Positions 1 to 58,568 are shown, counted from the first letter of the stretch. The stretch is DNA of 64,000 bases from an uncultured virus (IMG/VR IMGVR_UViG_2061766007_000520) (IMGVR_UViG_2061766007_000520), one strand, 5' to 3'. Numbers and translations: made by a program. Notes: generated by a model not told the origin, from the letters alone.

Positions 1-822
1 GATTGGGCAGTTGACAACATAAGCTATGACAAAGATAAGAATCAGGTTGTACTTGATTTCGAGAAGAAAGGCTGGTCAGAATACTTTGAGGCGAATATTG
101 ACAGTGCCAAGCTGTCTAATGTTTCAACACAGTCAGTATACTCGACACAGACATCAGAAGTCACGGCATTAAAGACATTGGATATGTTCTATTCAACATG
201 TGACAAACAGCAGGTGTGCTCAGGACGTGGGTATGTCAATCATAACTTTGTTGCGCAGTGCGTGTCACAATCAGTTGAGAACATTCAAGTCAAGATGCTT
301 CAGCAAAAGTTTACTTTTGTTCTTAAAGAAGTGACATTGCTTCCTATGCAAATATTGTTTAAGGCACTAGAGTCTGTGCGTAAGGGAATTATAGAACAAG
401 TAGATGCTTCAGGTNNNNNNNNNNATTTGAATCTGTCTACGCCTGATACATACAAGCAGAACACAGCTGTGCTTAAACCTGTCAATGACAGCGAGTTGTC
501 ATTCGATGTACAGTCTGTCAGACAGGAACAGAGCGTAGATGACCCTTACAGTACGATTCTTACGATATGCGCGGCTGCCCTTGGTTCATTGAGAGATTGG
601 GCAGTTGACAACATAAGCTATGACAAAGATAAGAATCAGGTTGTGCTTGATTTCGAGAAGAAAGGCTGGTCAGAATACTTTGAGGTGAATATTGACAGTG
701 CCAAGCTGTCTAATGTCTCAACACAATCAGTATACTCAACACAGACATCAGAAGTCACGGCGTTGAAGACACTGGATATGTTCTATTCAACATGTGACAA
801 ACAGCAGGTGTGCTCAGGACGT
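1..822. repeat. Near-identical direct duplication (1-228 vs 595-822), probably strain-variant contigs
   Basis: GATTGGGCAGTTGACAAC…TCAGGACGT occurs at both positions with scattered, mostly synonymous SNPs; the second copy ends at an N gap. Confidence 0.85.
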
Positions 823-2993: not shown

Positions 2994-5616
2994 ATGAAGT
3001 TTGACCCTGAGCATATAAAAGGAAATCCACCTTTAAGTACATTTGTGAACGACCCTGATACCTATGACAAAGAGTGGTGGGACGGCTACAGGGCGTATAT
3101 TAAACAGAAAGAACAGGGGGGCAATATGGTAAATGAGCAGCCACAGGAAACAAGCAGCAGGCGCATAAATCCTGCGGATATTTCTGCTATCACTACATAT
3201 GGTCAGTTGAGCAATATTGACAAACATCGCGTCCGGCATGAGCATGACGCTGACGGAAATCTTACAGGCACAGTGTACTGTGCTTTTGATGCCGAGGACA
3301 ACCCTGTATTTTTCCGCGTAAAGCCGGGGAAAGAAGGCCTTACTACAAACAGCCCGGTAGAGTATGTGCCTGACTTCCAGCCTTCTGAGAGCGAGCAGAT
3401 AGCCATATCGAACGCACTTCTTAACCTTAAAACCAGTGAATTGCAGGCACAGCCGCAGGCTGCATCGGAACAGCCTGCTACACAGCCACAAGTACCGGAG
3501 CAGACACCGGAACAGCCGGAATCAGTCACGACACCGGAGCAAACGCAATCAGCTGTTGAAGCCGCTAAGCGTGTTAGGAAAGCTGTGGGTGACCGCCTTG
3601 CGGAAGCAGAAAGGCAGGCAGAACGCTCCAAAAACCAGAAGCAGAACAGCATTTCCCGTGACAAGGCTCTTGCCAATCTACAGCAGGAATATAAGAAGCG
3701 GCTTGATGACTGGAACAGGACGGTAGGCACACATGGCGGCTATCCCAATACAGAAGACGAGTTCGCGAGGCAGCAGCTTGAGAAATGGTACACTGAGCAG
3801 AAAAATCATATAAACGAGCTTTATGACCAAGCACAGAAAGTCAAGGTAAAAGGCAACGTGACATCCGAGGACATCAGCAACGCCGCTACCGGCGCGATTA
3901 CCGGACTGTCCGACTACTTTGCGCAGCGTTTGCGCGGCAAGGAGGATGCTCCCGGTGCTCAGAATCTCCGGAATCAGGCCGCGTTGCACGACAAGCAGGC
4001 GGCAGACGAGCAGGCGAACGAGCAGCAGAACAGGCAGATTGCCAACCGTGACTACAGGGGCGAGGCAGAGAAGAACGCGGTCGCAGGCGCGGCTACTGAG
4101 AACGCGCAGAAAGTCGCCAATCTTGGGAACGTGTCTGCCGGTGCTGNNNNNNNNNNNNNNAGCTGACTATGATACGCACATGGCGCGTCAGGACGAGCAG
4201 CGTGAGAAAGCTGTCGAGAAACAGCGTGAGGCTTACGGTGCTCAGCAGACGGCTGAGGAAGAGCGGCAGGCAGCGGAAGCGGAGAACAATGACAAGCAGA
4301 ACATGGATTTCTATAACAATATAGCACGCTACCTTTCTATGGGCGGCAATCAGACTGCAGGCAGCGATGAGAAAGAAGAGGTCACGACCGGTGAGGGTAC
4401 AGGCAGCAACGGCACGCTTCCTGTGTCAGAGGAATCCAAAGATGAGCCTACGCCTACACCTACACCGACAGCTGATGAGCCTACGCCTACACCGGAAGGC
4501 GAAGGTGCGGGTGATGAGCAGCCTGAAGCAACGTCTTCGGCCAAGGACAACAAGTGGAAGTTCGGCGAGCTGTACGACAAGTATAATCCGGATGACAAGA
4601 TTCTTAAAGACAGCAAGCGGCTGGAGCGTACGTTCGGCACATGGCAGAACTTCCTCAATGATACTGACACTGAGGGCATGTCCGAGGGTGAGATTGCCGA
4701 GGCTTTCAAAAAGTACAACGATGAGTATGAGGAACCTTATAAGATATGGGGTGCTACGCAGGCAAACGGTGACTTCAGGGATTTGCCGGAGGAACAGCAG
4801 GGCGAGCTTAAAGATGAGTTCAAGAAACGCACATCTGCGTTCTACCAGTGGCGTGATGCTAATCCCGACAAAGCGGAGCTGTCTTTCGATGACCAGATGA
4901 AGCTGTTCATGCAGGATTACCTGAAGCAGCAGTACCCTGATGCCGGCAAAGACAGGTCGGATATTGCCGGGTCAAGCTCTGTTACTGGCGGAAACCCTAC
5001 GTCAGAAGGTAATTATCGCAGAAAACCACTGTCAAATGCTGCCGGTTCACAGCCGGAGCCAGAGAGCAAAGGTGAGGGCTTTGCGCCATTGTGGAAAGCG
5101 GCATCAGATACAATGCAGCTTGCACAGGGCAAAGAACCGGCACCGGAGCAGCAGACTACACCGGAACAGCCGGAATCTGCTGTAACCAATGCTCCGGAAC
5201 CGGAACCAGAGCCAGAAGCACAGCCACAGGCACAGAATACAGGTTTATCATGGATAGATGGCACCGGCTCATTGCAGAAACGTTTGGGCGAAGTCATAGG
5301 CGCGGAAATCAAGCCTGTAGAGGGCAAAGACGGTGAGTATACAATCAACGGCGAAGACAGGCCTCTTAATGCAAAAGAACAGGAAGCCGTGAGAAGTTGG
5401 TTGGATGCTAACGGCACAAATATTACGACACGCAACCGCAATAGTGACGGTTGGAACGCTTTTGGCCAGTGGCTTTTGTCACATGGCATGCCTGAAAGGG
5501 ACTTGCTTCCTATAGATATGATGAGGGAAGAAGAGCGCGGCGACCCTACGGCTTGGCAGCCGAGCGGCACTGTTACCGGTGCTCTTCTTGACGGATATGA
5601 CAGGGGGTTAGCATAA
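2994..5616 (+). CDS. Large acidic, Q/E/P-rich internal virion (ejection-like) protein; one gene split by the gap at 4147-4160
   Basis: ORF 2994..4166 continues after the gap in the frame of ORF 3919..5616 (ADYDTHM…). It has internal TPEQPES and DEPTPTP repeats and lies in the structural cluster. Confidence 0.55.
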
Positions 5617-5954
5617 TGTCAGACAGTATTTGGGATAAATCAAAGTGGAACGCATGGATTCGTCCTGCAGCGGAATGGAACGCTAATCCTGCTGATTATA
5701 TGAATAAAAGTCAGCCAGATGAAAAGGTTGACCTGACAGCGGAAACTTTGAAAGGGAAATATGCCGACCTTATCGCAAGTGACCCGATAGAGGCACGTAA
5801 GAAGATACTTGACGAGCTTCTTGCGGCCAATATAGACTGGCATAAGGGCGAGTACAAGGACCTCTTTGACATGCTCAACAGCAAGGCAGTGGAGTTCACT
5901 GATTCTGACAGCAGGCAGAAGAACATAGTCAAAGGCGTATGCAGTAAATACTAG
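5616..5954 (+). CDS. Small hypothetical head-region protein ending SDSRQKNIVKGVCSKY
   Basis: 112 aa ORF coupled to the upstream gene (TAATG). Confidence 0.7.
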   Translation: MSDSIWDKSKWNAWIRPAAEWNANPADYMNKSQPDEKVDLTAETLKGKYADLIASDPIEARKKILDELLAANIDWHKGEYKDLFDMLNSKAVEFTDSDSRQKNIVKGVCSKY

Positions 5955-5962
5955 GAGGCTAT

Positions 5963-6573
5963 ATGACACGCGATGCAATCAAGGAAGCCATACTTAAAAT
6001 GGCACTGAAACAGTTTAAGAAAGAACTCAGCACACCGGGTTCTGCCGTTGCCATGAAGTTCAATACTATGTTATACGGTGACCCCGCGAAGGGTACGCCG
6101 GGACTTTTTGACAAGTTCACGGAATATGACCCCAAAGAGGGCATAATGACCGAGGAACAGCTTCAGGATGAGATTGACCGGTATAAGCGCAGTATGGGAC
6201 AGACTGCAGCGGATGTCGCGGGTACTACGCTCAGCACTTTGGGGCAGGGCGCGGGCAAGACGATTGCGGGCGGCTCTAACCTTTTGGGTAATGCTCTTAT
6301 AGCCATGAGCAGGAGCAGGGCCGGAAACATCGCCAACCCTATCGCGCCGCTTTTGGGTGCCGCAGGCAATGTGGCGGNNNNNNNNNNNNNNNNNNNNNNN
6401 NNNNTGCTCTCAGTACCGTGGGCAAGGCAATCGGTGCTGTCAGCAATGACATCAAGAGCAACCGTGAGAAAGAACGAGAGGCAGAGCTTCTTATCCGCGA
6501 GCATCCGAACGGAGCGTTCTACGATGCCCGCCGCAAGCTGACGACCGGTGTTCAGAAAGGGTACTCGGTATGA
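5963..6573 (+). CDS. Gly/Ala-rich putative internal/ejection protein (frame corrected across the gap)
   Basis: GGAGG RBS. After the gap the reading continues ALSTVGKAIGAVSND…QKGYSV* and ends at 6573, overlapping the next ATG. Confidence 0.55.
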
Positions 6574-7337
6574 TGGAATTGGCTGCGATACCTGCTGTAA
6601 TGGCGATAAAGGATGTTACAGGAGATGTGCTTTCAGCCGGCGGCGAGGGCCTTGACATGCTCGGTGACGTTGCGGGGGATGTCGGTGACAGCATGGAGAA
6701 TCAGGAGATTGCTAACCCTGTGGCTCCGCTCATTCAGGGCGCGGGCAAAGTGTTTGACGTGGTTGGCAAGGGTGCCAAGTTTCTTGGTGATGTCATCGGT
6801 TCTGACGAGCGTATCAAAGATGTCGTTGACGGCATAGATGATGTCATGGCGAATCTTTTTGAGGAATATCTCAGGTCGCCTGCGTTCAAGGAAGCCGCTG
6901 CGGAGTACATCGGCCCTTATGTGATATCTGATTTCAACGAGAAGATACTGCGTGAATATGCCAACAAGGAAGGCCCTCTTTCGGAAAGGGACCTTGCCGT
7001 TGTTTCATATCTCATGGGAAAAGGTGACGGTGACCTTGACCCTATGGAGTCCAACAACTGGACAGATGACATGGTGCAGGAATATGCGGAGAATCTGCGG
7101 AACTTCCTGTATACATATAAAAACTCTGCCAAGGTGGTTGACCCGTCCATTGACCCGAACGAGTATCATCGCGGGCCTATGGCACAGGATATTGAGAAAG
7201 TCGCGCCTGATTGTGTCAAGGAAACAGAAGAGGGCGTGAAGGTTGTGGACGGCAACAGGCTTGCTCTTGTCAATGCCGGCGTAATCGGTGACCTTGCCAG
7301 AAGGCTCATAGAATTGGAGGACAGGGTATATGGCTAA
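6570..7337 (+). CDS. Peptidase S74 (intramolecular chaperone, autocleaving) domain protein
   Basis: GSDERIKDV cleavage motif, FLYTYK, RGPMAQDIEKVAPDCV, VD…L and a C-terminal coiled coil RRLIELE, all typical of S74 domains. Confidence 0.75.
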   Translation: MMELAAIPAVMAIKDVTGDVLSAGGEGLDMLGDVAGDVGDSMENQEIANPVAPLIQGAGKVFDVVGKGAKFLGDVIGSDERIKDVVDGIDDVMANLFEEYLRSPAFKEAAAEYIGPYVISDFNEKILREYANKEGPLSERDLAVVSYLMGKGDGDLDPMESNNWTDDMVQEYAENLRNFLYTYKNSAKVVDPSIDPNEYHRGPMAQDIEKVAPDCVKETEEGVKVVDGNRLALVNAGVIGDLARRLIELEDRVYG

Positions 7338-8280
7338 AACGAATGATGTACAGGGTACGAAGGTAGACCTCTCAAGCGAGGACCGGAGGGCTTCTGCCGA
7401 AGATACTTTGTCCCAAGCGACCAACGCATATTCAAACGCTGCTCAGGAAGCTGACCTCAGCACAGGCTCGGAACGGCAGGAAGACATTCTTAACAACCTT
7501 ACGCCGGACCAGTTCTACAAGATTTACGGTTACTGGAACTGGAACCTTGCCAAGAACAATGCCAAGGGCAACCTCAACAACAAGACATATGGAAACAACC
7601 TGTACAATTCCCGCCTTGCGGATGCTTTCAACAACCGCAAATACTGGAAGGCGGCGCGTATCGGGCACAGGACGAACAGCGGCTTTGGAAGCACAGGACT
7701 TCAGCAGGGTCAGGCGGTGCAGTACAATCCCATAGAGACGCAGGAAACACGCCAGCAGCGTGCCAATGAGCAGATTGACCTGCTTGCGCGTCAGGGACAG
7801 CAGAACCTTGCCACTCAGATGCAGGGATACAAGTTCAACGTACAGCAGAACGCTGACAAGATACGTCAGGGCTTGAGCGAGCTTATAACAAAGAACAAGA
7901 TTGACCTCAACAAGCATGCGCAGGAAAGTATATGGGACGAGCAGTACAAGGGAAGCTGGGATGCTTACTGGCAGAACTCGATGGCCCGGTTTGCCAAGGA
8001 ACTTGACCAAGACATCAAGAACAGGGTGCTCAACGCCGTCAATAAGCTTGATGCTCCGCTGAAGCAGATTTACATGAGCTTGCAGGGCGGCACTGCTCCT
8101 GACCTTCTGACTGACATTGCTTATAAGTATATCAACAATTCGCTCGGTGATTTGGAGCCGGGTTCGGAAGCGTACAATGCCGCTCTTATGGAAGGTGTAG
8201 GCCGCGTGGCTTCGCTCTTCGGCGAGGGTATTGGCACAGTGCTCAAAGAAGTGCTTTCAGGCTTATTCGGAGGTAAATGA
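7330..8280 (+). CDS. Gln/Asn-rich putative internal virion protein
   Basis: 316 aa ORF with RBS, located in the structural cluster. Confidence 0.5.
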   Translation: MAKTNDVQGTKVDLSSEDRRASAEDTLSQATNAYSNAAQEADLSTGSERQEDILNNLTPDQFYKIYGYWNWNLAKNNAKGNLNNKTYGNNLYNSRLADAFNNRKYWKAARIGHRTNSGFGSTGLQQGQAVQYNPIETQETRQQRANEQIDLLARQGQQNLATQMQGYKFNVQQNADKIRQGLSELITKNKIDLNKHAQESIWDEQYKGSWDAYWQNSMARFAKELDQDIKNRVLNAVNKLDAPLKQIYMSLQGGTAPDLLTDIAYKYINNSLGDLEPGSEAYNAALMEGVGRVASLFGEGIGTVLKEVLSGLFGGK

Positions 8281-9473
8281 TGCTTCAGATAGACATGCGA
8301 CATTTTGCGTCTGATGCGCTTGAGGATGCCATGCGTCTTGCGCAGACTAAGGCACTCAACAGCTATACATTCTCCGATTGCCTGAGCTTTCTTAACTATG
8401 CTTGGCGTGACATCTACGACAGGGTAGCTGCTATTGATGACGGTTATTATGGTGTTAATGTCAAGCTTACGAAGAAGCTTACTACGTTGCCGCCGTTTGT
8501 TAAGAACTCGCTTATGGTATACTCCGCGCAGACACCTATAGGCTATGACAGGCGTGCTTATCGTTCTGCTAACTTTGAGGAAATTACTTCTGCTTGTACA
8601 TACCGGATAAGCGGACGTGACCTTTATTGCGAGGATGTAGGACGCAGGCCTGTATGGTTGTACTACGTCCCTGTGTGCAGCCAGCTGTTCTTCACGCATC
8701 ATAACCGTGACCCCAAGCTCTATGAGAACAGCGTTGACGGTGAGCATGTAGTTCATTGGGGGCATGACACCGTAAGGAGCAACGTATACAACCTGTTCAT
8801 ACTTCATGGCTACATCCACTACGATGAAGAGGGTGCTACGGATGTCGAGGTTGATTTTACGTTACCGGGTACAACTGCTGCTCAGATTAAAGAGATAAAC
8901 AAATGGACAATGGAGCACAGGGGCACAGGAAACGTAGAGGATGTCACTGACATGTTCGCCGTTCCTGTTGATGATGACGATGACGGAAACTGGCAGCTCT
9001 GCTATGTGTCCTGTGATTATCCATATATATTCCTTACTTACGAGCACAGCATAACAGGCGAGCATATATCAGGGTTCCTTGATGCCGGAAGGCAGTTCAA
9101 TGCCTATAATCCGTTTGATTTCACCGGACGCAATTCAAACGTTGAGTACATTGACTGCAGGTGGAACGACAAGACCGGAATGGGCGTGTTCATAAAGGAC
9201 TGGAATGACCTTGATGAGAACAACTTGCCGAGAATCAAGGAACTCGGCTGGACGCCTGACTCATTGCTTGACTACCCGGCTACTGAAATGTACCGCTATC
9301 TTGTTGCCCGGCTTGCCGACAAGCTTGCGGCCCTTAACGAATCAGATGTAATGGGTGTCAAGAAAGAGCTTATCGAAGCGCAGTATGCTTTCGAGGCTTT
9401 CCTTGACAAAGATAAGGCTTCATGGAAGCGCATAACGAATGTCAACCCGCCATCAATTGCGGACTACTTGTAG
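8277..9473 (+). CDS. Head-tail adaptor / tail tubular protein A-like
   Basis: N-terminal helical motif (…SDCLSFLNYAWRDIYD…) and C-terminal LLDYP…YLVARLA, as in podovirus adaptor proteins. Confidence 0.55.
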   Translation: MMLQIDMRHFASDALEDAMRLAQTKALNSYTFSDCLSFLNYAWRDIYDRVAAIDDGYYGVNVKLTKKLTTLPPFVKNSLMVYSAQTPIGYDRRAYRSANFEEITSACTYRISGRDLYCEDVGRRPVWLYYVPVCSQLFFTHHNRDPKLYENSVDGEHVVHWGHDTVRSNVYNLFILHGYIHYDEEGATDVEVDFTLPGTTAAQIKEINKWTMEHRGTGNVEDVTDMFAVPVDDDDDGNWQLCYVSCDYPYIFLTYEHSITGEHISGFLDAGRQFNAYNPFDFTGRNSNVEYIDCRWNDKTGMGVFIKDWNDLDENNLPRIKELGWTPDSLLDYPATEMYRYLVARLADKLAALNESDVMGVKKELIEAQYAFEAFLDKDKASWKRITNVNPPSIADYL

Positions 9474-9483
9474 GAGGATAAAT

Positions 9484-9957
9484 ATGACTAATTGGCCATC
9501 AGTTGAGGGCAGCTCAACACAACGTCCGCTTCTTGAATCAATGCAGAAGTATCTTAAAGGCAAAGGTATTTCTGCTGAGGATGTTGCTAAGGAACCTGAA
9601 AATTGGTTGAAGAAAATCTTTCTTGATTACAGCAGATTAGTACCTGATGATATACAAGGCTTACAGGAAATATACAATTATGGAAATAACAGGCTTAACG
9701 CTATACCTTATTTTGCAGGTACGATGAGGCATTATTTTCCTGAGAAGGACTATCCTGAAGATGACCTTGCGCTTGATGAAAATAATCCTTGGAATCTAGA
9801 CGTATACTCAATAAACGACCTTACTGATAATGATATTTCACCTGAAGACTGGAGCGAAATGCAGCATGGCCTTAGTCGTGAGATTATACGCCAGATGGAC
9901 ATTGCCAAAAAGCATCAGGATAACATCGTAAAAGGTGTTTCCGACCCTTGGAGCTGA
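9484..9957 (+). CDS. Acidic hypothetical protein ending QDNIVKGVSDPWS
   Basis: GGAGG RBS before the ATG at 9484; more AT-rich than its neighbours. Confidence 0.7.
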   Translation: MTNWPSVEGSSTQRPLLESMQKYLKGKGISAEDVAKEPENWLKKIFLDYSRLVPDDIQGLQEIYNYGNNRLNAIPYFAGTMRHYFPEKDYPEDDLALDENNPWNLDVYSINDLTDNDISPEDWSEMQHGLSREIIRQMDIAKKHQDNIVKGVSDPWS

Positions 9958-9959
9958 TT

Positions 9960-10268
9960 ATGACCGTAGAAGAAAGAGAAAGTGCGGAGATAAACTATCC
10001 CGAAGACTGCATACAGTTCCTTGAGGACTATCTCAGGCGTAACATGAGCTATGATTCCATGCGGAACAAGGCCGTCAGGGATGCTGTCGAGAGGCGGCTC
10101 TCCTTTACGGTAAAAGACTTTGGCGACAGGCATGGGGTTGATGTACCGGATAATGACACGGCTTCGATAGTCAATGAGGCTATTGACCGTTTCATGGATA
10201 ATTGGAAAGGCAAGACAGAGGGCGAGGACAACAGGAGCCATCAGCTAGGCAAAAGTACGTTCAAGTGA
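9960..10268 (+). CDS. Hypothetical protein
   Basis: ATG at 9960 after GGAG; open ORF of about 102 aa. Confidence 0.6.
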   Translation: MTVEERESAEINYPEDCIQFLEDYLRRNMSYDSMRNKAVRDAVERRLSFTVKDFGDRHGVDVPDNDTASIVNEAIDRFMDNWKGKTEGEDNRSHQLGKSTFK

Positions 10269-10289
10269 TAAAATCTTGTCTTTTGTATA

Positions 10290-10318
10290 TTTACAACGGC
10301 ATATAATTGTGCTAGAAT
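10290..10318 (+). promoter_or_regulatory. Sigma70-type promoter for the head operon
   Basis: TTTACA-17 nt-TAGAAT with an extended TG; same layout as 52590-52618. Confidence 0.6.
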
Positions 10319-10374
10319 AAAGCAGATAGTAGTAATAGAAGCTGTTTGTTTTATGTATAACAGTGGAGGTATTT

Positions 10375-11103
10375 ATGGAATTACCTGAACTTCAGCAGGG
10401 ACTTGAGGCTATTCAACAGGGTCAGCCCGCCGCTGCGCCGCAGCCACAGGAAGCACCGTGGCTTAACATGGATAACATGATGGGGGCATACGGTAGTTGG
10501 TTTGGTAACGATGCCGGACTTGGCGAAGAGCTGCTTGCTCAGCTTCGTGCCAGAGGCGTTGATACGCAGGCTGCTACAGAGGCAATGCTCCGTGAGCTGC
10601 TTACAGGACTTGTGGAAGACACAAACTTGCTTCAGCAGAAATTGTCAGGTTTTATGACAATGCTTCAGCAGCAGGTACAGCAGACACAGGCTGTCACCGA
10701 TTCTATTCAGGCAGCTTTGGACAGTCAGGGTGCCAACCCGATTGCAACTGAAGTGCTCCCGCCTTCTGGTGGCGAAATGCCTGTTATGAATGACATCCCG
10801 CCGGATATGGGCGCGGGCGGCGAGCCTACCATGCCGCCTGAAGAATCAAACGTGCCGCCTGCGGAAGAGCCGCCTGTTCCGGGAGAACCCCCGGCAGAGG
10901 AACCGCCTGCGGAAGAGCCTGCGGCACCTGATGAGACTGCTCCGAAAGACAAGGGCAGTGACGTAAGAATCAAAGACATCAAAAACTATACCCTTTCAGA
11001 CGCAGCTATGAAAAATGTCAAGCTCACGATGGCAGAGCGCAAGAAACAGCGCGGCAATGCCCTGAGCAACAACATCCTTGCTGCATGTCAGCAGGGGTTC
11101 TAG
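10375..11103 (+). CDS. Scaffold-like acidic, Pro-rich protein with C-terminal SDVRIKDI and SDAAMKNV motifs
   Basis: GGAGG RBS; coiled coil plus a P/E-rich linker; two genes upstream of the capsid gene. Confidence 0.5.
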   Translation: MELPELQQGLEAIQQGQPAAAPQPQEAPWLNMDNMMGAYGSWFGNDAGLGEELLAQLRARGVDTQAATEAMLRELLTGLVEDTNLLQQKLSGFMTMLQQQVQQTQAVTDSIQAALDSQGANPIATEVLPPSGGEMPVMNDIPPDMGAGGEPTMPPEESNVPPAEEPPVPGEPPAEEPPAEEPAAPDETAPKDKGSDVRIKDIKNYTLSDAAMKNVKLTMAERKKQRGNALSNNILAACQQGF

Positions 11104-11112
11104 GAGGGCAAT

Positions 11113-11730
11113 ATGGCACTTGAGAATTTTCCACCGGATGTGCAGGACATGCTCAACGGCAACACGCCGGCAGCTGTCAACGCACACAAAATGCAGCGTG
11201 CTGAGAAATATCGGGATGTCATTGACAATGCTCCGGAGTCATTTGACTATGAGCAGGACATGCTCAATTATCTTTATGACAGCATTGACGATGATATGAC
11301 AGAAGAGGACATCTACATCCTTGCAGGTCAGCTTGGTGACAGAATCAAGAACAAAGAGACAGTGGAGGTGAAAGTGGATGCCAACGATGACGGTGACACC
11401 GATGTGATTGCCACGGACATCACAGGTGACGGTGAGCCGGACATAGCCGCTGTCATGGGTGACACTGAGGAAGAAACAAAGGATGCTGTCAAAGCTGCCA
11501 AGGAAGAGACCGGTGCTGACAAGGCCGACAATACTTCCACTGGCAAAAAGAAGGGTGAGCTTGATGCTCAGCCGGAGCTTGACTTCGAGGAAAAAGACGA
11601 AGTTAAGGAAGACGATGACGGAGAAAAAGAAAAAGAGGAAGAGACAGAAACAGCAGAAGTTTCTGATGACATTGACACTCTTCGCCGTCACAAAAACATC
11701 ATTGATGCTCTTTCGGAGCTTAGATTCTAA
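11113..11730 (+). CDS. Highly acidic scaffold/internal protein
   Basis: D/E-rich 205 aa ORF immediately upstream of the capsid gene; ends KNIIDALSELRF. Confidence 0.55.
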   Translation: MALENFPPDVQDMLNGNTPAAVNAHKMQRAEKYRDVIDNAPESFDYEQDMLNYLYDSIDDDMTEEDIYILAGQLGDRIKNKETVEVKVDANDDGDTDVIATDITGDGEPDIAAVMGDTEEETKDAVKAAKEETGADKADNTSTGKKKGELDAQPELDFEEKDEVKEDDDGEKEKEEETETAEVSDDIDTLRRHKNIIDALSELRF

Positions 11731-11782: not shown

Positions 11783-13405
11783 ATGATAACACAGGACCAG
11801 CTTGAGGCTCTTAGTAAGCAGGTATTTATCACAGATTATCTGCTTAATGGACTTTTCCCTTGTCAGTCTGACGTAATCAGGCTTATCCGCTCAAAGAAGC
11901 GCAAGTGGGATTTCAATGACAAGTTTGAGTATCGTATGCTCCTCTCAAATACGAANNNNNNNNNNNNNNNNNNNNNNNNNNNNNNNNNNNNNNNNNNNNN
12001 NNNNNNNNNNNNNNNNNNNNNNNNNNNNNNNNNNNNNNNNNNNNNNNNNNNNNNNNNNNNNNNNNNNNNNNNNNNNNNNNNNNNNNNNNNNNNNNNNNNN
12101 NNNNNNNNNNNNNNNNNNNNNNNNNNNNNNNNNNNNNNNNNNNNNNNNNNNNNNNNNNNNNNNNNNNNNNNNNNNNNNNNNNNNNNNNNNNNNNNNNNNN
12201 NNNNNNNNNNNNNNNNNNNNNNNNNNNNNNNNNNNNNNNNNNNNNNNNNNNNNNNNNNNNNNNNNNNNNNNNNNNNNNNNNNNNNNNNNNNNNNNNNNNN
12301 NNNNNNNNNNNNNNNNNNCAACTTCAAACGCGGCAAGCTTCTTATCAAGACTAAGACAGCTGCTCCTTGGGGTGCTGCGGATGTTACGGAGCTTTACCTC
12401 GTTCTTGACAATCAGCCGGGCGAGCTTTCGCTTCTCCCTGTAGGTACGACTGTATCTGAATGGGAAGACGGTCAGTTCCTTGAGGTTGCTCAGAACCGCG
12501 AAATCACAGGTATGCCTGCCAACACATTCGACAACTGGTCAGACGCAGCTATCACAGTAGCGACAGGCCCGTTCCAAGGCATCTATGACAAGTTCACAGG
12601 TACAGGTACGTACACCTACGGCGCGGATGCCGTAACAGGTGCTATGGAAGGTATCGCCGACTTGTTCCCTTGGTACACCGACCCTGCGGACATGGACACA
12701 CGCCTTGGTATCGACCTTCCTTACCGTGGTCAGTCCAACCGTCTCCGCTACTCAACGGAGCAGGCAGGCGGCTGGGTACTTCAGAAGCAGGGTGAGCACA
12801 TCATCGACGCTATCATGCGCGGTGCGTTCCTCACAAAAGCAACTGTACCTTATGCCGACATCGGTATCTGGATGAACCCTGTTACCCGCGTGGCACTCGG
12901 CTATGAAGAGGGCAACAACGTAACGGTTCTCCGTGACAACTTCGTTGCCGGTCCGATTGTCTATCAGCGTGGTGTCAAGACAACTGACTACCAGATTGGT
13001 AATCAGGTTGTCAAAGAGGTTGTTGAAGACCTCAACATGCCGACAGATGTCATCATCATCGGTCCGAAAAACGACCTGTCTTACAACTGCTGGGACAACG
13101 CAACGTTCGAGATTGACAAGTACATTCAGGAAACTTGGGGCAAGCAGATGCCGCCGAAGATTCAGGATGTCCGCATTCCGAACGAGCTTGTTGCGAAGAT
13201 GGACCTCTCACAGCGCATCACATACGGTGCTCCGACACTCCGCGATGGCCGCCTTGCAAGCTTCAGCAACGGCAACGGCATCCGTCACCCGAAGAATGTT
13301 ACGCCTGTTGCTATGCACGAAATGGGTGCTCTGTACACAGAGTATCCATACACATACACAGTCGTTAAGCTCCGCGAGCCTATCACGGACCTTGCTACTG
13401 TCTGA
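11783..13405 (+). CDS. Major capsid protein (partly in gap)
   Basis: About 540 aa with a strong RBS and highly biased codon usage, following the scaffold-like genes; assigned by position and size. Confidence 0.6.
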   Translation: MITQDQLEALSKQVFITDYLLNGLFPCQSDVIRLIRSKKRKWDFNDKFEYRMLLSNTXXXXXXXXXXXXXXXXXXXXXXXXXXXXXXXXXXXXXXXXXXXXXXXXXXXXXXXXXXXXXXXXXXXXXXXXXXXXXXXXXXXXXXXXXXXXXXXXXXXXXXXXXXXXXXXXXXXXXXXXXXNFKRGKLLIKTKTAAPWGAADVTELYLVLDNQPGELSLLPVGTTVSEWEDGQFLEVAQNREITGMPANTFDNWSDAAITVATGPFQGIYDKFTGTGTYTYGADAVTGAMEGIADLFPWYTDPADMDTRLGIDLPYRGQSNRLRYSTEQAGGWVLQKQGEHIIDAIMRGAFLTKATVPYADIGIWMNPVTRVALGYEEGNNVTVLRDNFVAGPIVYQRGVKTTDYQIGNQVVKEVVEDLNMPTDVIIIGPKNDLSYNCWDNATFEIDKYIQETWGKQMPPKIQDVRIPNELVAKMDLSQRITYGAPTLRDGRLASFSNGNGIRHPKNVTPVAMHEMGALYTEYPYTYTVVKLREPITDLATV

Positions 13406-13417
13406 TAGGGGCATAAG

Positions 13418-14428
13418 ATGGCAGCGGCAGAAGCTCGTCCGTTTCCTTGGTCATCGGACTACAGAAATGGGAAATGGATTTCCAATACCAAGCAGGGTAG
13501 AAAGACATACGCCCGTGGCAACAGGGGCGAGTATGAGGGCATGTCCGCTGCTTATCCGACACGCAAAGTAAGAAGCACTCTGACAGGAGATGTGTATCTC
13601 CTGCCGGAGCGTGACTACAAAGAGCTTCTTGAGACTTTCCGTGCGGAGGCTACTGATATATCGAATGAGTATGCCGACCACGGAAACAAAAGGCTCGCTA
13701 ATGTGCAGACACCTGCTGACTACATTGACTATGCTTTCCATACACCGAAGCAGAAAGAATCACTTGATACAGCGGAGTGTCAGGAAGGACACATTAAAAA
13801 GCTCACATATAACGCCAAGCACAAGCTGCTTATGGTGGAGTTTTCCAATAACGGAAGTATATGTGTGTTTTTTAATTTGCCCGCCGAGCTTGCCGCAAGA
13901 TTGATGTACCTTGCGCGTAACAATGTGCCCGCGTTGCATCCGTCAACCAAAGGCGACAGGCATGAGGTAGGCGTGCAATTTTGGAATCTTGTGCGTGTAA
14001 GGGGTACACAGCATGACACACGCTACCCATTTACATACACAGAGAACAATAATCCGGGAACGAACTCAGGAGCAAACACGGTTGCTTCCGGTAAGTTTGT
14101 ATACGGCGACCCCGGTGACAGGACAAGCCTTGCCGTAAAACAGAGCAACGGTGTGGATGCTTATCTTGATAAGAAAGAGAACATGCTGTTCTCGAAATCC
14201 CCCGCGCCTGATTATGAGAAGCTTGCGGATTATTTCGACAATAACGGCGGGAAGTTCTACAAGGGCAGAGGCTACAACTCGGTGCTTGTAGGCAAAAGCG
14301 CACCGCAGATGAAATCTCTGAGGGAAGCCTATGACAAGTACATGGCACTCAACGGAGAAGACAACTGGACTGAGGACAGCGCAAAAGAAATACGTGACTT
14401 GCTTTATGAAGCGGGTATACAGATATAA
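13418..14428 (+). CDS. KTSC-domain-containing protein
   Basis: GHIKKLTYNAKHKLLMVEFSNNGSICVFFNLPAELAARLM…VGVQFWNLVR matches the KTSC pattern. Confidence 0.6.
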   Translation: MAAAEARPFPWSSDYRNGKWISNTKQGRKTYARGNRGEYEGMSAAYPTRKVRSTLTGDVYLLPERDYKELLETFRAEATDISNEYADHGNKRLANVQTPADYIDYAFHTPKQKESLDTAECQEGHIKKLTYNAKHKLLMVEFSNNGSICVFFNLPAELAARLMYLARNNVPALHPSTKGDRHEVGVQFWNLVRVRGTQHDTRYPFTYTENNNPGTNSGANTVASGKFVYGDPGDRTSLAVKQSNGVDAYLDKKENMLFSKSPAPDYEKLADYFDNNGGKFYKGRGYNSVLVGKSAPQMKSLREAYDKYMALNGEDNWTEDSAKEIRDLLYEAGIQI

Positions 14429-20213: not shown

Positions 20214-20287
20214 GCAGGCTGCTTTTATAAGGAGTAGCTTAGTAGGACAGCTAAGTAGCCCTTAAAGGGCTACTTATAGGAGTGATA

Positions 20288-20690
20288 ATGAATGTGGAAG
20301 AAATACTTGTGTGGGTTGGTACTGCTATTGTGGCTGTCGTGTCTGCCCTGTTTGTCAGAGGCATATCTGGACGACGAGCAGGAAGAGGAACTGTGGAATC
20401 TACTGACAGAGTCGCAGACGGAATTGACAAACTTGAGGACGGAATCAAGGGTGCTCAAGAATCAGCTGGCAATATCACAGGAGCAATGCAGCACGTTGGA
20501 GACGGAATTAGAGCAGCTTCAGAATCAGCTGACAGAATCGGAACAGGATGTGCGGGACTTGAGGACAAGCTCAGAAGAGCAGAAGAAATCCTACGAGAAG
20601 CGCATAAAGAGCGAGGGGCTGAAAGCAACGGTGTTTGAGATAATCTCAATCGTGCTTGCTATAGCCTGTGCCGTAATCGCTATTTTCTAG
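20288..20690 (+). CDS. Overlapping spanin-like pair: 20288..20638 (N-terminal TM + coiled coil) and 20292..20690 (signal peptide + coiled coil + C-terminal TM)
   Basis: Two frames are open over the same DNA, both after AGGAG and both with membrane topology; located in the lysis module. Confidence 0.5.
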
Positions 20691-22907: not shown

Positions 22908-23561
22908 TTAACTATACTTTGCTTTAAGCCTGACAAAATCTTCGTATGTAATCTCGACATCTTTATCTCCTGTGTAATCAAAGTACCTGTTTATGTTGAC
23001 CTTCTCTCCGTCAGGGCAGTCAACTTCAAGTACACCCATGCCGTAAATCGTTCCGTCTTTTGCTACTTCCACAACATGCACGATGTAAGCGGGTGCTTTG
23101 CTCGGATAGTAAGGCATCAGGACAGGAAACATCTCATTTATTATCCTATTCACAACACCGCTATGAAACCTGTTGGACGTGTCCTCGGCATCAACGCATA
23201 CAACACGGTTATTGTCACTGTACCATACCTTTCCGTCTTTTTCCACATGCTTGAAAAGACCTGACATCCTGACGCACTGGTATTCAGCACAGCCGTCTTT
23301 GCTGCCGTCACTTATCATGCCCCAGTTCTCAGGAACATCCTCGATAGGCGTAATCGGAAGCTCGTCAAGCAGACGCTTCAGTATCACTTTTGTCACGCCA
23401 AAAGAAAACCCTGAGTGTTTGTCCCCCATAAGCGACTTGTACGCTTTCAATGCGCTCTGATAGCAGGCACATCCGTAATCAAACGACTTGCCGTCCCAAT
23501 CAGGATTCTCACGCTTGCATGCAATCCTTACCTCATTCTCTGCCCATTCTGTCATTGACAT
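22908..23561 (-). CDS. Conserved phage hypothetical protein
   Basis: 217 aa with RBS; WAENEVRIAC, HSGFS and YQCVRMSGLFK motifs recur in phage proteins. Confidence 0.6.
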   Translation of the reverse strand: MSMTEWAENEVRIACKRENPDWDGKSFDYGCACYQSALKAYKSLMGDKHSGFSFGVTKVILKRLLDELPITPIEDVPENWGMISDGSKDGCAEYQCVRMSGLFKHVEKDGKVWYSDNNRVVCVDAEDTSNRFHSGVVNRIINEMFPVLMPYYPSKAPAYIVHVVEVAKDGTIYGMGVLEVDCPDGEKVNINRYFDYTGDKDVEITYEDFVRLKAKYS

Positions 23562-27732: not shown

Positions 27733-28110
27733 TCAGAACGGAATATCATCAGGATATTCAGTCGGGGAATCATCCTGTGACTGCTGTGCCTGCGGCTTTG
27801 AGCCTACGAAGTTTATCTCATTGGTGTTCACCACAAACTCAACATAGTGCTGGCCTTCGCGCGTATCATACTCATTGCGCTCAGGAATACCGTCACAACT
27901 TATGGCAGTGCCTTTTTTAAGGTACTGCACAATCTTGTCACCCCTCTCACCCCACATCTGTACCTTGACGAACATGGTCTTCTTATACTCGCCATATCCT
28001 GTGTTGATTGCTACGTTCGCGTTGAGCACCTTTTTGCCTGTTGCCAACGTGCGCACAGCAGCATCCTGTGTAAGCCTTCCGGTAAAAATAAAATGACTCA
28101 AATCAGCCAT
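27733..28110 (-). CDS. ssb: Single-stranded DNA-binding protein
   Basis: TGRLTQDA, YLKKG and the acidic C-terminus DDIPF. Confidence 0.9.
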   Translation of the reverse strand: MADLSHFIFTGRLTQDAAVRTLATGKKVLNANVAINTGYGEYKKTMFVKVQMWGERGDKIVQYLKKGTAISCDGIPERNEYDTREGQHYVEFVVNTNEINFVGSKPQAQQSQDDSPTEYPDDIPF

Positions 28111-53215: not shown

Positions 53216-55167
53216 ATGGAACAGGATGTTATGGAGAAGGATGATTGGGACGATTTTGCCTGTGAGTCTGACGTAAAGGAACAGCAGCTTAATATCGCGC
53301 GGGGAGAGACATTCTCCGCAGGTATCCGCAAAATGCTTCAGCGTCCTGTTTCCGATGACGTTCTGCCTGTACAGAAGCGGATAAGCTCGGACCTGCTTCC
53401 GCAGTACAACTCCATTTTTGAGATTGCCAGAAAAGAGGACGTCACCGTACTTGAGTACGTGAGGCGCGACCCGCAGTTCGCGCTGCGCGTTGCCGAGAAC
53501 TGCTACGCCGACTGGCAGAACCTTCTGACCGCAGCGGCCATCACCGGTGGCATCGAGATGCCTGATGAGAAAGGCGAGGTGCAGCGTTACGCGGTATCAA
53601 AGAACCAGACTAAGCTTATAGAGCTTCGGGTGCGCGAGGCATCCAAGCAGCTTGACCTCGTTAACGAGCTTGTGCTCACATGCAGCAGGGATGAGGAGCA
53701 GAGGAAGGACGTGCTTGAGCGTGCCATGTACAAGCGTGCCCTCAACGGCGATTCGCGCCTTGCCATCTATCTGCATGACCGCGTTNNNNNNNNNNNNNNN
53801 AGCAGGTCGAGTATGACTATGACAATGCCTACAATATATACGCGATTATCAAGACGCTGTTCGACAAGCAGCTTGAGGTACTTAACTCAGGAAACGGCGT
53901 GAAGCTTATCTGCTGTTCGCGCCGCGCCGGAAAGACGCACCTGCTTGTCGCGCTCCTTATGATAGAGTGCCTGCGCAAGCAGCGGACGCAGGTTATGTAC
54001 ATCGGTGAGACGATGGAGCTTTCCGAGTCGCTTGTCAACAAGGCGGCGCAGGACATCATAGATGCCTGCCAGCTGAGGAACAAGCGCGGGATGCGCTTTG
54101 ACTGGAAGCATTTTGACAACGGCTCCGAGATTATTATACGAGGGCTTTCAAATACCAAGGACCCTGACCAGATTCGCGGAAAGGCCGCCAAGGTAATCGT
54201 AATAGACGAGTTCTTCCACCTGAAGAGCGAGCTTCTTGAGTACCTTCAGACTGAGGTACTTGAGCCTATGCAGATGGACTACGCGGATGACTACATGTTC
54301 GTCTGCGCGGGAACGCCGCCTAAGATTAAGGGCACATACGGCGAGCATGTGTGGAAGACATGGGACGTTCCGCATTTCAGCTGGACATGGGAGGATAACC
54401 CTCATCCTGTCAACCTTGAGCTGCGCCGTGAGTTCGTTGAGAAGAAGCTCAAGGAGAAAGGGCTTGACTGGTCAAGCTCATTCGCGCGGCGTGAGTACAA
54501 GGGCGAGTGGGCATATGACGATGACCTTCTCCTTTATCCGGATTACCATGTATATGACAAGCGTGAGGTCATGCCGAGCATTCAGCCGACAAGAATCCTG
54601 TTCGGCATAGACTACGGCGTGGGCGACAACGACACGATATGGGGCGGTATATGGAATGATGACGAGCAGCGGGGCTACCAGTTCTGGGAGGACAAGTTCA
54701 ACCGCCTCGACATTATGAACCGGAGCATATCGCAGCTTGAGTACCTTGGAGAGCAGGTAAGGGCCGCGTGGAGGACCGCGCTCGACTACTTCCCTGACCT
54801 TTCGCCCAAGGAGGCGAACAAGCGCATCCTGTGGGACGCCGATGACAGCGACCAGCATCTTACGGACTACTTCAACATCAACCTGCGGCTTGAGGGCAAG
54901 GAGTACGTGGACCTGCGGCTCAACATACAGAACGCGCATAAGACTGACAAGACGATTATGTATGACAAGATAAGGGATTTGCTCAGGAAGGGTGACATGC
55001 TGCTGATTAAGGGCGGCAAATGTGAGCATGAGGTTACGTCCACCATCCTGAAGCGCGGTCCCAACGGCGAGATATATAAGGAAGTTGACACCAAGGCATA
55101 CCACCCGGACTTGCTTCCGGCTATGAGGTACGCTTTGTGGAATGCTATTGGACAATATGTGTCTTAG
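53216..55167 (+). CDS. terL: Terminase large subunit with an N-terminal TerS-like extension (gap at 53786-53800)
   Basis: Walker A SRRAGKT, Walker B IVIDE, AGTP coupling motif, nuclease GIDYG and HPDLLPAMRYA. The ATPase frame is open back to the gap. Confidence 0.85.
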
Positions 55168-55605: not shown

Positions 55606-56919
55606 ATGGCAGATGACAGGGAACGGTACGTATTCAGGATATATAATATCATAGATAATGATAAATTGAAGCGGGATATTGCTGAGACAGCACGCCACAT
55701 AGATAACCCTGCTGTTTCTGATGAGCAGAAGCAATGGCTGAAGGTTAAGAAACAACGGCTTGAGGACGAGCTTGCTGAATATGCAGGAGAATATTTTTGG
55801 GGCAGCCCTTATAAATATGGGCAGGGTGGTGAGACCTATGCAAGAGAGCATCCCGGAGAATGGAAGAATATGGGGGAAGTGCAACATGCCCCGGATGATT
55901 ACACTTTGGACGAGGATTATCTCATGCGTAGTAATGATGATAAGATGTCATCTGAAGAGTATGCCGAGAAGCATGGCGGTGACTTTAAGCTTGACAGTTG
56001 GGGAGGCACAGAAAGGGAGAAATGTTATCATGGGCACATGTGGCTTCCCCATAAAGGGTTGTCGGTCATAGGGCTGTCTGACCCTATGTATAGTATTTAT
56101 CCGCTGCATGATATAGACGACAGAAAAATGTTTAGTCATACTGATAACGGTATGAAGCTTGACCGTGAATATCTGAGGGCACTCCATCCTGCTGTGCAGG
56201 ATATGTACAATTTTGCGTTCACGAAGTATATGGGTAAGTCCCCGGACGAGCTGTTTGATGATGAGGGATATTTTAAGGGAAATGCTGAGGATGCTGAAAA
56301 GTTTGCTGCTAATAAAGATACTATCGCTGAGTATCCTAAGCTTGTGCCAAGCGTTAATGCTTTTCCCAGTATGAAGGCATACAGGCTTTATAGTCAGACA
56401 GGCTACCCTATTGCAGATGACAAGTATAAGTGGATGAAATTGCTGAACAGCATTGCTAATACAGCTGCTTGGTCGAGTGGCAACAGCCTCGTGCTTGCGG
56501 GCGTTCCGGAAAAAGCCATATATACACCACGGGAGCTAGACAGGCAGGGCATAGCGGCTGCTATGGATTTCCCGGAAGAAATGCTCGTAAAATATTTACG
56601 TCCTGTAAAAAAGTGGTCGCTTAAAGATAGACTGCCTGTTGACAAGGGAGGCGGCCTCACGGAATGGAGCAAGCTGTTAGATAGGATAAAAGAGCTGCTT
56701 AATGCTCCTAAAGGCTGGGACATGGAGAATCGCCCCGAGTATTGGGAGAATGAGGCACGTAAGTTCATACGTGATAACTTTGACATTGACCCTGTTGATA
56801 TTGTGTCAGATGAGCTTAAAAAAGAGATTTTCATGGACCTGAGTTCATGTTATAATGGCACTAAACCTAGTGAGCATATCCTTGAGGGATTGACGCAGGG
56901 AGGTAGAAGATGGCAGTAA
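55606..56919 (+). CDS. Hypothetical acidic protein between terminase and portal, with a C-terminal SDELKKEI…HILEGL tag
   Basis: 437 aa ORF, more AT-rich than its flanks. Confidence 0.6.
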   Translation: MADDRERYVFRIYNIIDNDKLKRDIAETARHIDNPAVSDEQKQWLKVKKQRLEDELAEYAGEYFWGSPYKYGQGGETYAREHPGEWKNMGEVQHAPDDYTLDEDYLMRSNDDKMSSEEYAEKHGGDFKLDSWGGTEREKCYHGHMWLPHKGLSVIGLSDPMYSIYPLHDIDDRKMFSHTDNGMKLDREYLRALHPAVQDMYNFAFTKYMGKSPDELFDDEGYFKGNAEDAEKFAANKDTIAEYPKLVPSVNAFPSMKAYRLYSQTGYPIADDKYKWMKLLNSIANTAAWSSGNSLVLAGVPEKAIYTPRELDRQGIAAAMDFPEEMLVKYLRPVKKWSLKDRLPVDKGGGLTEWSKLLDRIKELLNAPKGWDMENRPEYWENEARKFIRDNFDIDPVDIVSDELKKEIFMDLSSCYNGTKPSEHILEGLTQGGRRWQ

Positions 56920-58568
56920 AATGGAGTAAAGACCCTGTAAACAACGAGTACAGGCCTACGTTGTTCCCCGGTGAGGACACCGAGGACTGGGAGCTTCCTG
57001 AAGGCATAAAGAATGATTTCCACCGCCTTAACAGCGTGATTGAGGCGAAGTATTCGCGTGAGTTCCTTAAAGTCTGTGCTTTCTGCAACAAGATGTTTCC
57101 TTCGCTCAAGACATCCGACTGGAACCAGTCGTCATACAACGTGCCGCCGTTCACCGCCATGGAGCAGGAAAGAAGCGACACCGGCTTCGGCACAAACTAC
57201 AATTTCCTGAAGCAGATTGTTGACCAGATAACGTCCCGCCTCGGCACCATAAGCTTCACGCCGAAGCTTATGTCGGAGGAACAGAGCTACGAGTACATAG
57301 TTTACAAGGATGAGGTTGAGCGCGTATTGAGGAAGCTCATCAAAAACGATGACCTTATCCGGATAAGCATCGAGGCGTTCCATGATGCTGCCGTGCTTAA
57401 CTATTCGCATGTGTTCATCGACCCCTACACCGGAAGCCTTATGAAAGCCAATGACTACGAGGTAGGTATATTCGAGAGCCAGTTCAACAGGCGGCACATA
57501 AAGCAGATGCTTTACCGTGACTATGCGTTCCCTGTGACGGATGCCTTCATATATATGAAAGATTTGGACGAGAAGCTTTCCAAGGAGCTGCTTGAGACGC
57601 TATCGGGCAAGAACTCCGTTGAGTTCAGCATGTACTTTGACTGCGTGAAGCATGAGGTATACGTCACGATTGCAGGAAAGACGTTGCCCGCGCGTCCTTA
57701 TCCGTTCGATGAGGTGCTTATGACCACCTTTGCATGGGACACCGGCTTCGCGCGTCAGCTTTCCACGTCCATGTTCGACCTGCTCTACCCTATACAGAGG
57801 GAAGTCAACCGTATCGCGGCGAAGACACAGGTGCTTATCCGCAACTACAAAGGTTCCGTTCCGGTGTTCAATTCGGACGTTGACCTTGCCATGAAAGCCA
57901 TTACCAACGGCACGGGCGAGGCGTTGTACATTGATTCGTCGCGGAGCGCGGCGGAGCTTATGACGGTCATAAATCCTACTCCGCTTGACCCGCAGCTTGA
58001 CAACGAGATACAGACACGAAAGACTACGATGTATGAGCTTGCGGGAATACAGAACGCCTCGTTTGACATGGAGAACATGCGGAGTGCGGCGGCTGTCGTT
58101 GCCCTTGACCAGACGCGCGACAGCGTGTTCCAAGCGCAGATGGCGGGTATGTCTCAGTTCATAAAGAATATGCTTGAGCTGTACATCGACTACCTTGCCG
58201 AGTATCCGGACATGTCCGGTGACAGGAGAAGAATTGACTGGAAGACGGTAAGCAGGCTCATAAAACAGTCTTACATCAACATGCAGCCTGTTCATATGAA
58301 TGACCCGCTGAGCGATGAGCAGAAGATTGACGAGAATCCTATGGACTACGTGAAGCTTGCAATATCACGGCTCCTGCTTGACGTGATAAACGGTGACGTG
58401 ACGTTTGAGACGGTGCCGTACTACATCGACACCATGCTGCTTGCGGTTCATGTAGCGGGTATACTCATAAAGTTTGAGGCGTTGGGCATTGACGTGCCTG
58501 ATGCCATACACAGGTTCCTTATGGCGGCGTACATTGATGCCGTCAAGACAGGCCGCGCCAAGCTCTAG
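56910..58568 (+). CDS. Portal protein
   Basis: 552 aa after the terminase; N…KQIVDQITSRL, DLLYPIQREVNR and YELAGI…SAAAV patterns resemble P22/podovirus portals. Confidence 0.7.
   Translation: MAVKWSKDPVNNEYRPTLFPGEDTEDWELPEGIKNDFHRLNSVIEAKYSREFLKVCAFCNKMFPSLKTSDWNQSSYNVPPFTAMEQERSDTGFGTNYNFLKQIVDQITSRLGTISFTPKLMSEEQSYEYIVYKDEVERVLRKLIKNDDLIRISIEAFHDAAVLNYSHVFIDPYTGSLMKANDYEVGIFESQFNRRHIKQMLYRDYAFPVTDAFIYMKDLDEKLSKELLETLSGKNSVEFSMYFDCVKHEVYVTIAGKTLPARPYPFDEVLMTTFAWDTGFARQLSTSMFDLLYPIQREVNRIAAKTQVLIRNYKGSVPVFNSDVDLAMKAITNGTGEALYIDSSRSAAELMTVINPTPLDPQLDNEIQTRKTTMYELAGIQNASFDMENMRSAAAVVALDQTRDSVFQAQMAGMSQFIKNMLELYIDYLAEYPDMSGDRRRIDWKTVSRLIKQSYINMQPVHMNDPLSDEQKIDENPMDYVKLAISRLLLDVINGDVTFETVPYYIDTMLLAVHVAGILIKFEALGIDVPDAIHRFLMAAYIDAVKTGRAKL

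Follow-up and report, generated by a model that had tools for sequence, protein, structure and literature searches.

A two-part tail on head-region proteins

The uncultured podovirus-like phage IMGVR_UViG_2061766007_000520 (IMG/VR; analysed as one stretch of 64,000 nucleotides, here called the window) and its relatives encode head-region proteins with unrelated bodies that end in related tails. These tails are built from two elements, a dyad motif (SDxxxK) like that of S74 (intramolecular chaperone/autocleavage, ICA) proteins and an amphipathic helix (NIhx[AG]h), and it is close to certain that they form a selected two-part tag across the whole phage family. What is new is that the S74 core of these phages is often a stand-alone protein, and that its own cleavage site is lost in two or three lineages with its YxY segment and the scaffold tags kept. 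We tentatively propose, as a reading that falls somewhat short of probable, that the helix would dock scaffold and cargo proteins in the procapsid and that a trimer of the S74 protein would cut the tag in trans, using the substrate's own dyad.

The core comparison set consists of the window and 10 whole or near-whole relatives (11 genomes), with genes called by a simple longest-open-reading-frame (ORF) rule; the variable genes at three insertion sites are termed insertion-site genes. All head-region genes named below lie on the plus strand. Two of them, 10375..11103 and 11113..11730, are designated putative scaffolds 1 and 2 on the basis of their pre-capsid position and composition. Scaffold 1 has a conserved N-terminal part, a Pro/Glu-rich linker, two dyad motifs (SDVRIK, 10957-10980; SDAAMK, 10996-11019) and a terminal helix (NNILAACQQGF, 11068-11100). 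Scaffold 2 is acidic and ends in the helix KNIIDALSELRF (11692-11727); the window copy has no dyad, which occurs at this position in 6 of 11 genes.

The strict form of the motif, SDxRxK, is found 39 times over the 11 genomes: 32 times in the 18,120 amino acids (aa) of the scaffold and insertion-site genes against 0.34 expected, 7 times in the 105,216 aa of other late-strand genes (1.11 expected; all seven in S74 proteins), and never in the 79,364 aa of early-strand genes (0.91 expected). A sequence-only reading of this DNA had asked whether the tag is restricted to late genes and commoner at these C termini than in shuffled controls; by these counts the motif is confined to late, head-region genes and is not there by chance. 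In 21 further loci that were unused for training and include some near-duplicates, the strict motif occurs 32 times in the 53,086 aa before the capsid gene and once in the 66,354 aa after it; of the 32, scaffold or insertion-site genes account for 22 and S74 proteins for 9, and 1 is internal elsewhere. A test independent of the lysine, in which K at +5 was counted after any SD within the last 110 aa, gave 245/254 for scaffold homologues and 18/35 for insertion-site genes, compared with 9/151 for other late genes and 12/139 for early genes.

Among 103 aligned scaffold-1 orthologues with a mean column identity of 28%, the first site never varies at S, D, and K (103/103; Arg in 75/103), and the corresponding residues of the second site are retained in 96, 89, and 92 sequences, respectively. 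The invariant residues have the spacing of the S74 Ser-Lys dyad and stand beside a linker whose mean top-residue frequency is 0.39. SDxxxK is present in 118 of 120 database homologues of scaffold 1, contrary to the refuting case named in the earlier reading, in which homologues lack the motif. Within the last 60 residues, the motif occurs in 83 distinct proteins that fall into 22 body-sequence clusters, some of which are probably remote homologues or chance matches. Tagged proteins mostly end 16-72 residues past the motif, with no S74 core downstream and no PF13884 match, and none of 34 insertion-site proteins scores above a Pfam cut-off. Scanning IMG/VR with one narrow pattern (SDxRxKNIIx[AG], fixed codons) returned 24 matches. 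Five belong to this phage family, each in a long ORF and 16-17 residues from its stop; 2 are canonical tail S74s, and the other 17 mostly lie internally or outside long frames. With this pattern, the tag was seen in no other family.

The helix was scored with a 9-column profile trained on 20 pre-capsid tails from relatives only. At least 5 bits are reached by 18/38 insertion-site genes versus 5/432 other conserved genes and 1.7% of shuffled tails, and at least 8 bits by 13/38 versus 2/432. The lower threshold is also reached by 115 of the 120 scaffold homologues, which were chosen as whole-protein homologues. Among the 98 window ORFs, 11113 ranks first (19.1 bits) and 10375 second (10.6 bits); 7330, a gene absent from the earlier reading, ranks third, and 55606 (4.2 bits), 5616 (3.6), and 9484 (3.4) rank 5, 6, and 8, scores that are individually non-significant. 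A conserved amphipathic motif marks the extreme C terminus of pre-capsid proteins and variable genes, and in one subclade, a small conserved gene before scaffold 1 likewise ends in such a helix. The two elements are separable, each being found without the other, and wherever both are present, the dyad precedes the helix. A comparison of cargo tails with the scaffold-2 tails of each subclade, made with unequal reference sets, gave a mixed result: 23 of 30 were closest to their own in one subclade, but only 10 of 17 clearly so in the other direction, with 6 opposite and about 1-2 ties.

All five tails singled out by the sequence-only reading (5616, 9484, 10375, 11113, and 55606) are present at those genes, and the bodies are indeed unrelated, with no mutual blastp similarity (best E value, 0.29). 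The claim that all five share the S74 motif holds for 5616, 10375 (twice), and 55606; 9484 (VSDP) and 11113 (VSDD) have the helix only. The hexapeptide NIVKGV is encoded as described (AAC ATA GTC AAA GGC GTA in one gene and AAC ATC GTA AAA GGT GTT in another), differing at 4 of 6 third positions. The 112-aa sporadic protein 5616..5954 carries a compact full tag (SDSRQK-NIVKGVCSKY, 5904-5951); the one type of homologue found is 51-53% identical and keeps the helix, with the SD site absent. The 157-aa, AT-rich orphan 9484..9957, for which no relative was found, has a terminal helix only (DNIVKGVSDPWS, 9919-9954) and no dyad. The 437-aa variable gene of the terminase-portal interval, 55606..56919, has SDELKK at 56806-56829 and a weak helix, EHILEGLTQ, from 56872; its S401, D402, and K406 are retained in a 27%-identical homologue, and its final 30 residues are unchanged in an 83%-identical one. 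The motif sits on unrelated, interchangeable genes and keeps exactly the S74 dyad residues, as had been suggested. Low GC content was proposed as a sign of swapped-in cargo, and 9484 (0.40) and 55606 (0.45) do lie below their neighbours, but this is not general: 19 of 35 insertion-site genes in the 11 genomes fall under the late-gene mean, with a mean difference of -0.013, and AT-richness was rejected as a cargo marker.

In one relative (L200:3639-9533), five or six genes of 240-690 aa precede the S74 gene; SDxRLK lies close to the end of two of them, several have tag-like ends, and the run may be an expanded array of cargo genes.

The stand-alone S74 protein and its relatives

The product of 6570..7337 is a 255-aa protein with a Gly/Ala-rich leader and no C-terminal fusion to a trimeric beta-helical spike or fibre. 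Its membership in the S74 family, stated in the sequence-only reading, is confirmed by Pfam (Peptidase_S74, PF13884; 27.7 bits, cut-off 22), by alignment, and by fold: the best Foldseek match of a monomer model (predicted local distance difference test [pLDDT] score of 71.6) is the MyRF ICA domain (7dc3; E value, 2.2e-4). It also matches PHROG 4287 ("DNA ejection protein") and 6121. Both SD motifs named earlier are present, with different standing: SDFNEK (6927-6950) is the site that aligns with relatives and is the cognate one, and SDERIK (6801-6824) lies in a leader that is particular to this lineage and recurs in one close relative. About 45 residues absent from canonical members are inserted between SDFNEK and the core, followed by the YxY (7101-7118) and GPMAQD (7173-7190) segments. 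That a stand-alone S74 begins right after the SDERIK position was considered and rejected, as most keep the site aligned with SDFNEK. The leader resembles the product of the preceding gene, 5963 (0 of 500 shuffles scored as high), and in a comparison of the leader with an orthologue of 5963, the blastp match is not significant.

SDxxxK is the published catalytic motif of S74 (PMC10769870), and in MYRF, S587A and K592R/H/M block cleavage, whereas S587C does not (PMC3742440). The cleavage strand of one MyRF subunit threads the hole of its neighbour; Y615 and Y617 line that hole, the double mutant abolishes the normal cut, and cleavage requires the trimer and apparently not a folded upstream stalk (PMC8326128). 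The YxY tyrosines of the phage family align with Y615 and Y617, and trimer formation and autocleavage before Ser are predicted for 6570 as family properties. The sequence-only reading placed S74 normally on tail spikes, but it is not limited to these, given PHROGs 4287 and 6121 and the fusions to internal proteins described below. S74 genes also occur in contractile injection loci without annotated tail fibres, where the text of PMC8213781 available to us gives no mechanism.

Across 67 distinct S74 cores of the phage family, 44 are stand-alone and 23 are fused to long, non-annotated, internal-type proteins, the partner being the first internal protein in 22 of the 67. An own site accompanies 35 stand-alone and 22 fused cores, and [SCT][DS]xxxK is missing from 9 stand-alone cores and 1 fused core; by a stricter count, 14 of 48 stand-alone S74s are without a site. 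Site-less genes start about where the site would end, and two of three inspected starts have a purine-rich, ribosome-binding-like sequence. On a 92-column tree, many of whose forks are weak, they fall at three places, which suggests two or three losses of the own site. SDxxxK is missing from 33 of 120 short database homologues (fragments may be among the 33), and YxY is present in all 120. Scaffold 1 keeps SDxxxK in all six genomes in which it can be seen together with a site-less S74 (L007, L093, L122, L124, L015, and L071, representing three lineages). Cys replaces Ser at four own sites of family S74s, probably reflecting few events. Two fused S74s (L080:2709-4607 and L083:2857-4884) have CDARMK, with Cys for Ser, as a second own site adjoining an intact SDxRxK.

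Proposed loading and cutting, and competing explanations

From the two elements, their distribution and conservation, the S74 fold, and the site-less S74 genes, we infer a head location for the tagged proteins, a docking partner for the helix, binding by S74, and cleavage. In this model, the terminal 9-14 residues, an amphipathic NIhx[AG]h..[FYW] helix, would dock scaffolds and interchangeable internal proteins into the procapsid, and SDxxxKx[IV] upstream of the helix would be an S74 cleavage strand separated from its core. The phage's only S74 protein would trimerise and thread the tag strand through its hydrophobic hole, where Ser and Lys supplied by the substrate would cut the bond before Ser. 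The cut would remove the C-terminal 16-60 residues, including the helix, and free the scaffold to leave or the cargo for ejection; S74 would act as a non-catalytic co-protease of head maturation, and helix-only proteins would be loaded and remain uncut. The main argument for action in trans is that a conserved cutting hole without its own strand stands beside many strands without a core; a trans role predicts S74 proteins with nothing of their own to cut, and these are often observed. The insert of about 45 residues that parts site from core even in an S74 with its own site points the same way. A role as head anchor is suggested by the helix at the end of both pre-capsid proteins, where coat-binding ends lie in the scaffolds of P22 and herpesviruses. 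Tags also seem to move by recombination, as the large internal protein of the window is untagged and 5616, just behind it, has a tail like that of the relatives' large protein. The picture, held with slightly less than even confidence, would be of a cis-acting tail-spike chaperone turned into a trans-acting co-protease of head maturation, with a portable load-and-release tag gained by recombination. The earlier interpretation is thus supported in part, by the distribution, the conservation, and the site-less S74s, with two separable elements in place of one tag.

Known S74/ICA proteins (PF13884; endoNF of K1F, Bdellovibrio MAT fibres, and the MYRF ICA domain) share the fold, SDxxxK, YxY, and the G.xAQ segment with the family described here, but they make a single cut in their own chain, behind a trimeric beta-helix, whereas the phage core is often alone, with a 45-residue post-site insert or no site, and the motif is spread over unrelated, non-fibre proteins. 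The proposed system would work like T4-type head processing while being built from a known domain. As in T4 and SPN3US (gp21 and gp245), one enzyme would serve many head proteins through a shared motif, and propeptides of that type can target proteins into the prohead; there, however, most propeptides are N-terminal and catalysis resides in the protease (PMC10052503), whereas here the tag sits at the C terminus and the substrate would supply the catalytic pair. The helix is comparable to the P22 hook and to the last 25 residues of the herpes simplex virus 1 (HSV-1) scaffold, coat-binding elements at the scaffold C terminus (PMC12005531). The P22 ejection proteins are thought to co-assemble with the scaffold, and the portion of that source available to us describes no shared tag (PMC12005531), unlike the terminal motif common to scaffold and cargo in these phages. 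Head processing through a shared tag and a separate S74 helper was not found in the literature searched. There are other precedents: the herpesvirus scaffold tail is removed by a viral protease; LexA and lambda cI undergo RecA-stimulated self-cleavage, with the Ser-Lys dyad in the substrate and a separate co-protease, although their fold is unrelated and their dyad lies in a folded domain, not in a six-residue tag; and short hydrophobic C-terminal peptides load unrelated cargo into the HK97-fold shell of encapsulins. The likeness of the latter to the phage tag is one of arrangement, and encapsulins are cellular compartments whose cargo is not cleaved free.

It is also conceivable, if somewhat unlikely, that the SDxxxK strand only docks on the S74 trimer, a hub that would organise scaffolds and internal proteins, the tag being the detached first 16-17 residues of an S74 domain. 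Two tail-fused S74 domains start with SDEREKNIISGI.[DE][RK]Y, like the compact tags beyond the searched pattern (2 of 24 scan matches, from one family), and the existence of helix-only proteins agrees with docking as well; binding, however, should be more tolerant of Lys-to-Arg and Ser-to-Thr/Ala changes, of which the first scaffold site has 0 in 103, and a trimer with three holes could hardly hold many scaffold copies simultaneously. We consider it unlikely that the helix loads cargo while cleavage at the SD motif needs no S74, being autocatalytic or due to a host protease or an unrecognised phage protease, with S74 processing only its own leader or fused partner. Such a protease could be overlooked, most structural proteins being without a Pfam match, and 57 of 67 S74s retain their own site, but site-less cores persist with the hole residues intact, and MyRF cleavage depends on the trimer and the hole tyrosines (PMC8326128).

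A tag that directs proteins to the portal, the tail or the ejection apparatus, and not to the capsid wall, would explain why tagged genes cluster also beside the portal gene and the large tail-type gene and why 6570 matches tail-fibre and ejection-protein PHROGs through its S74 domain; the P22 scaffold hooks bind portal plus coat (PMC12005531). We nevertheless judge this reading distinctly improbable, since the two genes directly preceding the probable capsid gene bear the strongest, most constant tags and the tag is rare downstream of that gene (the single motif counted above, and some more in other relatives). Finally, the tails could be functionless left-overs of S74 gene fission and recombination, or chance. 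The 5616 tail looks as if captured from the neighbouring large protein of relatives, and some family members have S74 fused to the first internal protein, yet the invariance of S, D, and K beside a variable linker, the synonymous divergence of NIVKGV, and the presence of scaffold tags in S74-fused and unfused lineages alike make this very improbable, and the conservation pattern already largely refutes it.

Several points weigh against the load-and-cut mechanism. Gene classes were assigned by synteny after the tails had been inspected, the genomes are related, so that the counts are non-independent, and the assignments of capsid, portal, and scaffold are weak. Dyads are missing from 2 of the 5 named window proteins, from 25 of 38 insertion-site genes, and from 2 of 49 distinct scaffold-1 sequences (clearly so in L095; L191 lies at a contig end), and the helix falls below 5 bits in 20 of 38 insertion-site genes. 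The conserved internal protein of the window has lost its tag. Several orthologues of the post-capsid gene 13418 have SDxRxK deep within the protein, 134-311 residues from the end (the window copy has none), so the motif is not solely a terminal tag. Compact tags are also similar to the opening 16 residues of one canonical tail S74 family, as would suit docking on S74 as much as on the capsid. Because most S74s, including 35 of the 44 stand-alone ones, keep their own site, cis cutting of the leader may be the main job of the stand-alone proteins. Searches of the full-text literature, which covered few subscription papers, turned up nothing on trans action of S74 and nothing on this phage family. 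The lack of a classical head protease, noted in the sequence-only reading, is weak evidence: no Pfam match to prohead proteases of the T4 gp21, HK97 gp4, or SPN3US gp245 types was obtained among the window ORFs (29 late and 24 of 39 minus-strand), the 73 proteins of the complete relative G005, or the 34 insertion-site proteins, but Pfam misses the capsid and portal too, and the window has masked stretches. P22- and T7-type heads are not known to have a classical head protease either.

If the trans co-protease is real, head maturation would have a new kind of enzyme, with catalytic residues carried by each substrate; injected proteins would be swappable, a 17-residue tail sufficing for a gene, and a short cleavage tag triggered by a helper would be useful in the laboratory. 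The system bears on whether cleavage of the S74/MYRF type works between separate chains, and the tag predicts virion cargo among the uncharacterised genes of this phage family, in the 83 proteins and 22 clusters noted above.

Genome setting and neighbouring genes

The window represents about one circular genome of about 62.7 kb (end repeat at an offset of 62,715), with masked stretches, some of which cause frame shifts. The late genes occupy a plus-strand block that runs from about 52,500 across the origin to 22,700, among them the terminase, the probable portal, a very large tail-type gene, internal-virion-type genes, the two acidic genes, the probable capsid gene, and the lysis genes; the minus-strand (early) block encodes polymerase, helicase, and single-stranded DNA-binding protein. 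No cultured phage record was matched by the capsid gene (blastn) or by 6570 (tblastn). Uncultured relatives came from an S74 search (16 close loci) and a capsid search (29 viral loci and 4 loci in metagenome-assembled genomes [MAGs]), and 80 of 238 metagenome loci were kept. The labels of the four MAG contigs do not agree on a host (Treponema, Acutalibacteraceae, Lachnospiraceae, and one unclassified), possibly through binning errors. A locus search for the distant capsid homologue P0271 gave none.

The first internal-virion-type protein (2994..5616) is a single gene in two frames across a masked stretch, both halves matching the same orthologues; of 20 orthologues listed, most terminate in SDxxxKNI..A or NI..A tails, and the window copy is without a tag. 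A conserved, untagged Gly/Ala-rich gene whose frame is broken by a masked stretch (5963..6573) precedes the S74 gene, and another conserved gene (7330-8280) follows it; the C-terminal helix of the latter scores 7.2 bits on the tag profile, and most of its orthologues score low. Downstream of the scaffolds, the probable major capsid protein (11783..13405) is partly masked and untagged. The candidate has no Pfam or PHROG match, and its structure model (pLDDT, 36.7) is too poor for a meaningful fold search; an orthologue matches, at 0.96, an Atlas cluster in which 16% of members bear SU10_MCP (PF17236), and this, with gene order, is a lead only to its identity. The next gene (13418-14428) has a weak KTSC domain match under the cut-off (E value, 1.2e-4). 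At L193:12764-13094, no scaffold genes lie between an adaptor-like gene and the capsid gene, and the near-identical L191 has a scaffold there, a gap that is either a misassembly or a true rearrangement.

On the other side of the origin, the untagged large terminase subunit (53216..55167; Pfam Terminase_6N, PHROG 2) is in two frames across a masked stretch, and both ORFs cluster with orthologues of 618-997 aa. The probable portal (56910..58568), also untagged, is named from an orthologue that matches the PHROG 156 portal (E value, 1.9e-4). A direct repeat with a 594-base offset (positions 1-209 region; window 1-803) lies within the large tail-type gene and may be an assembly or masking artefact.

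In the lysis region, the plus-strand ORFs 20282-20638 and 20292-20690 overlap almost fully in different frames, both with hydrophobic N termini; the arrangement looks like an embedded spanin pair, in which case the host would be expected to have an outer membrane. The early block ends with an anti-defence gene, 22911-23561 (minus strand), which has a strong Pfam match to Tad3, a type I Thoeris inhibitor (E value, 6.5e-26). Also on the minus strand, a small protein (32477-32758) matches Cpn10 (GroES-like) at 22.4 bits, barely over the cut-off, and 28106-28393 encodes a dATP/dGTP diphosphohydrolase domain (E value, 4e-34), present in the relative G005 too, that could be relevant to nucleotide pools or modified bases.

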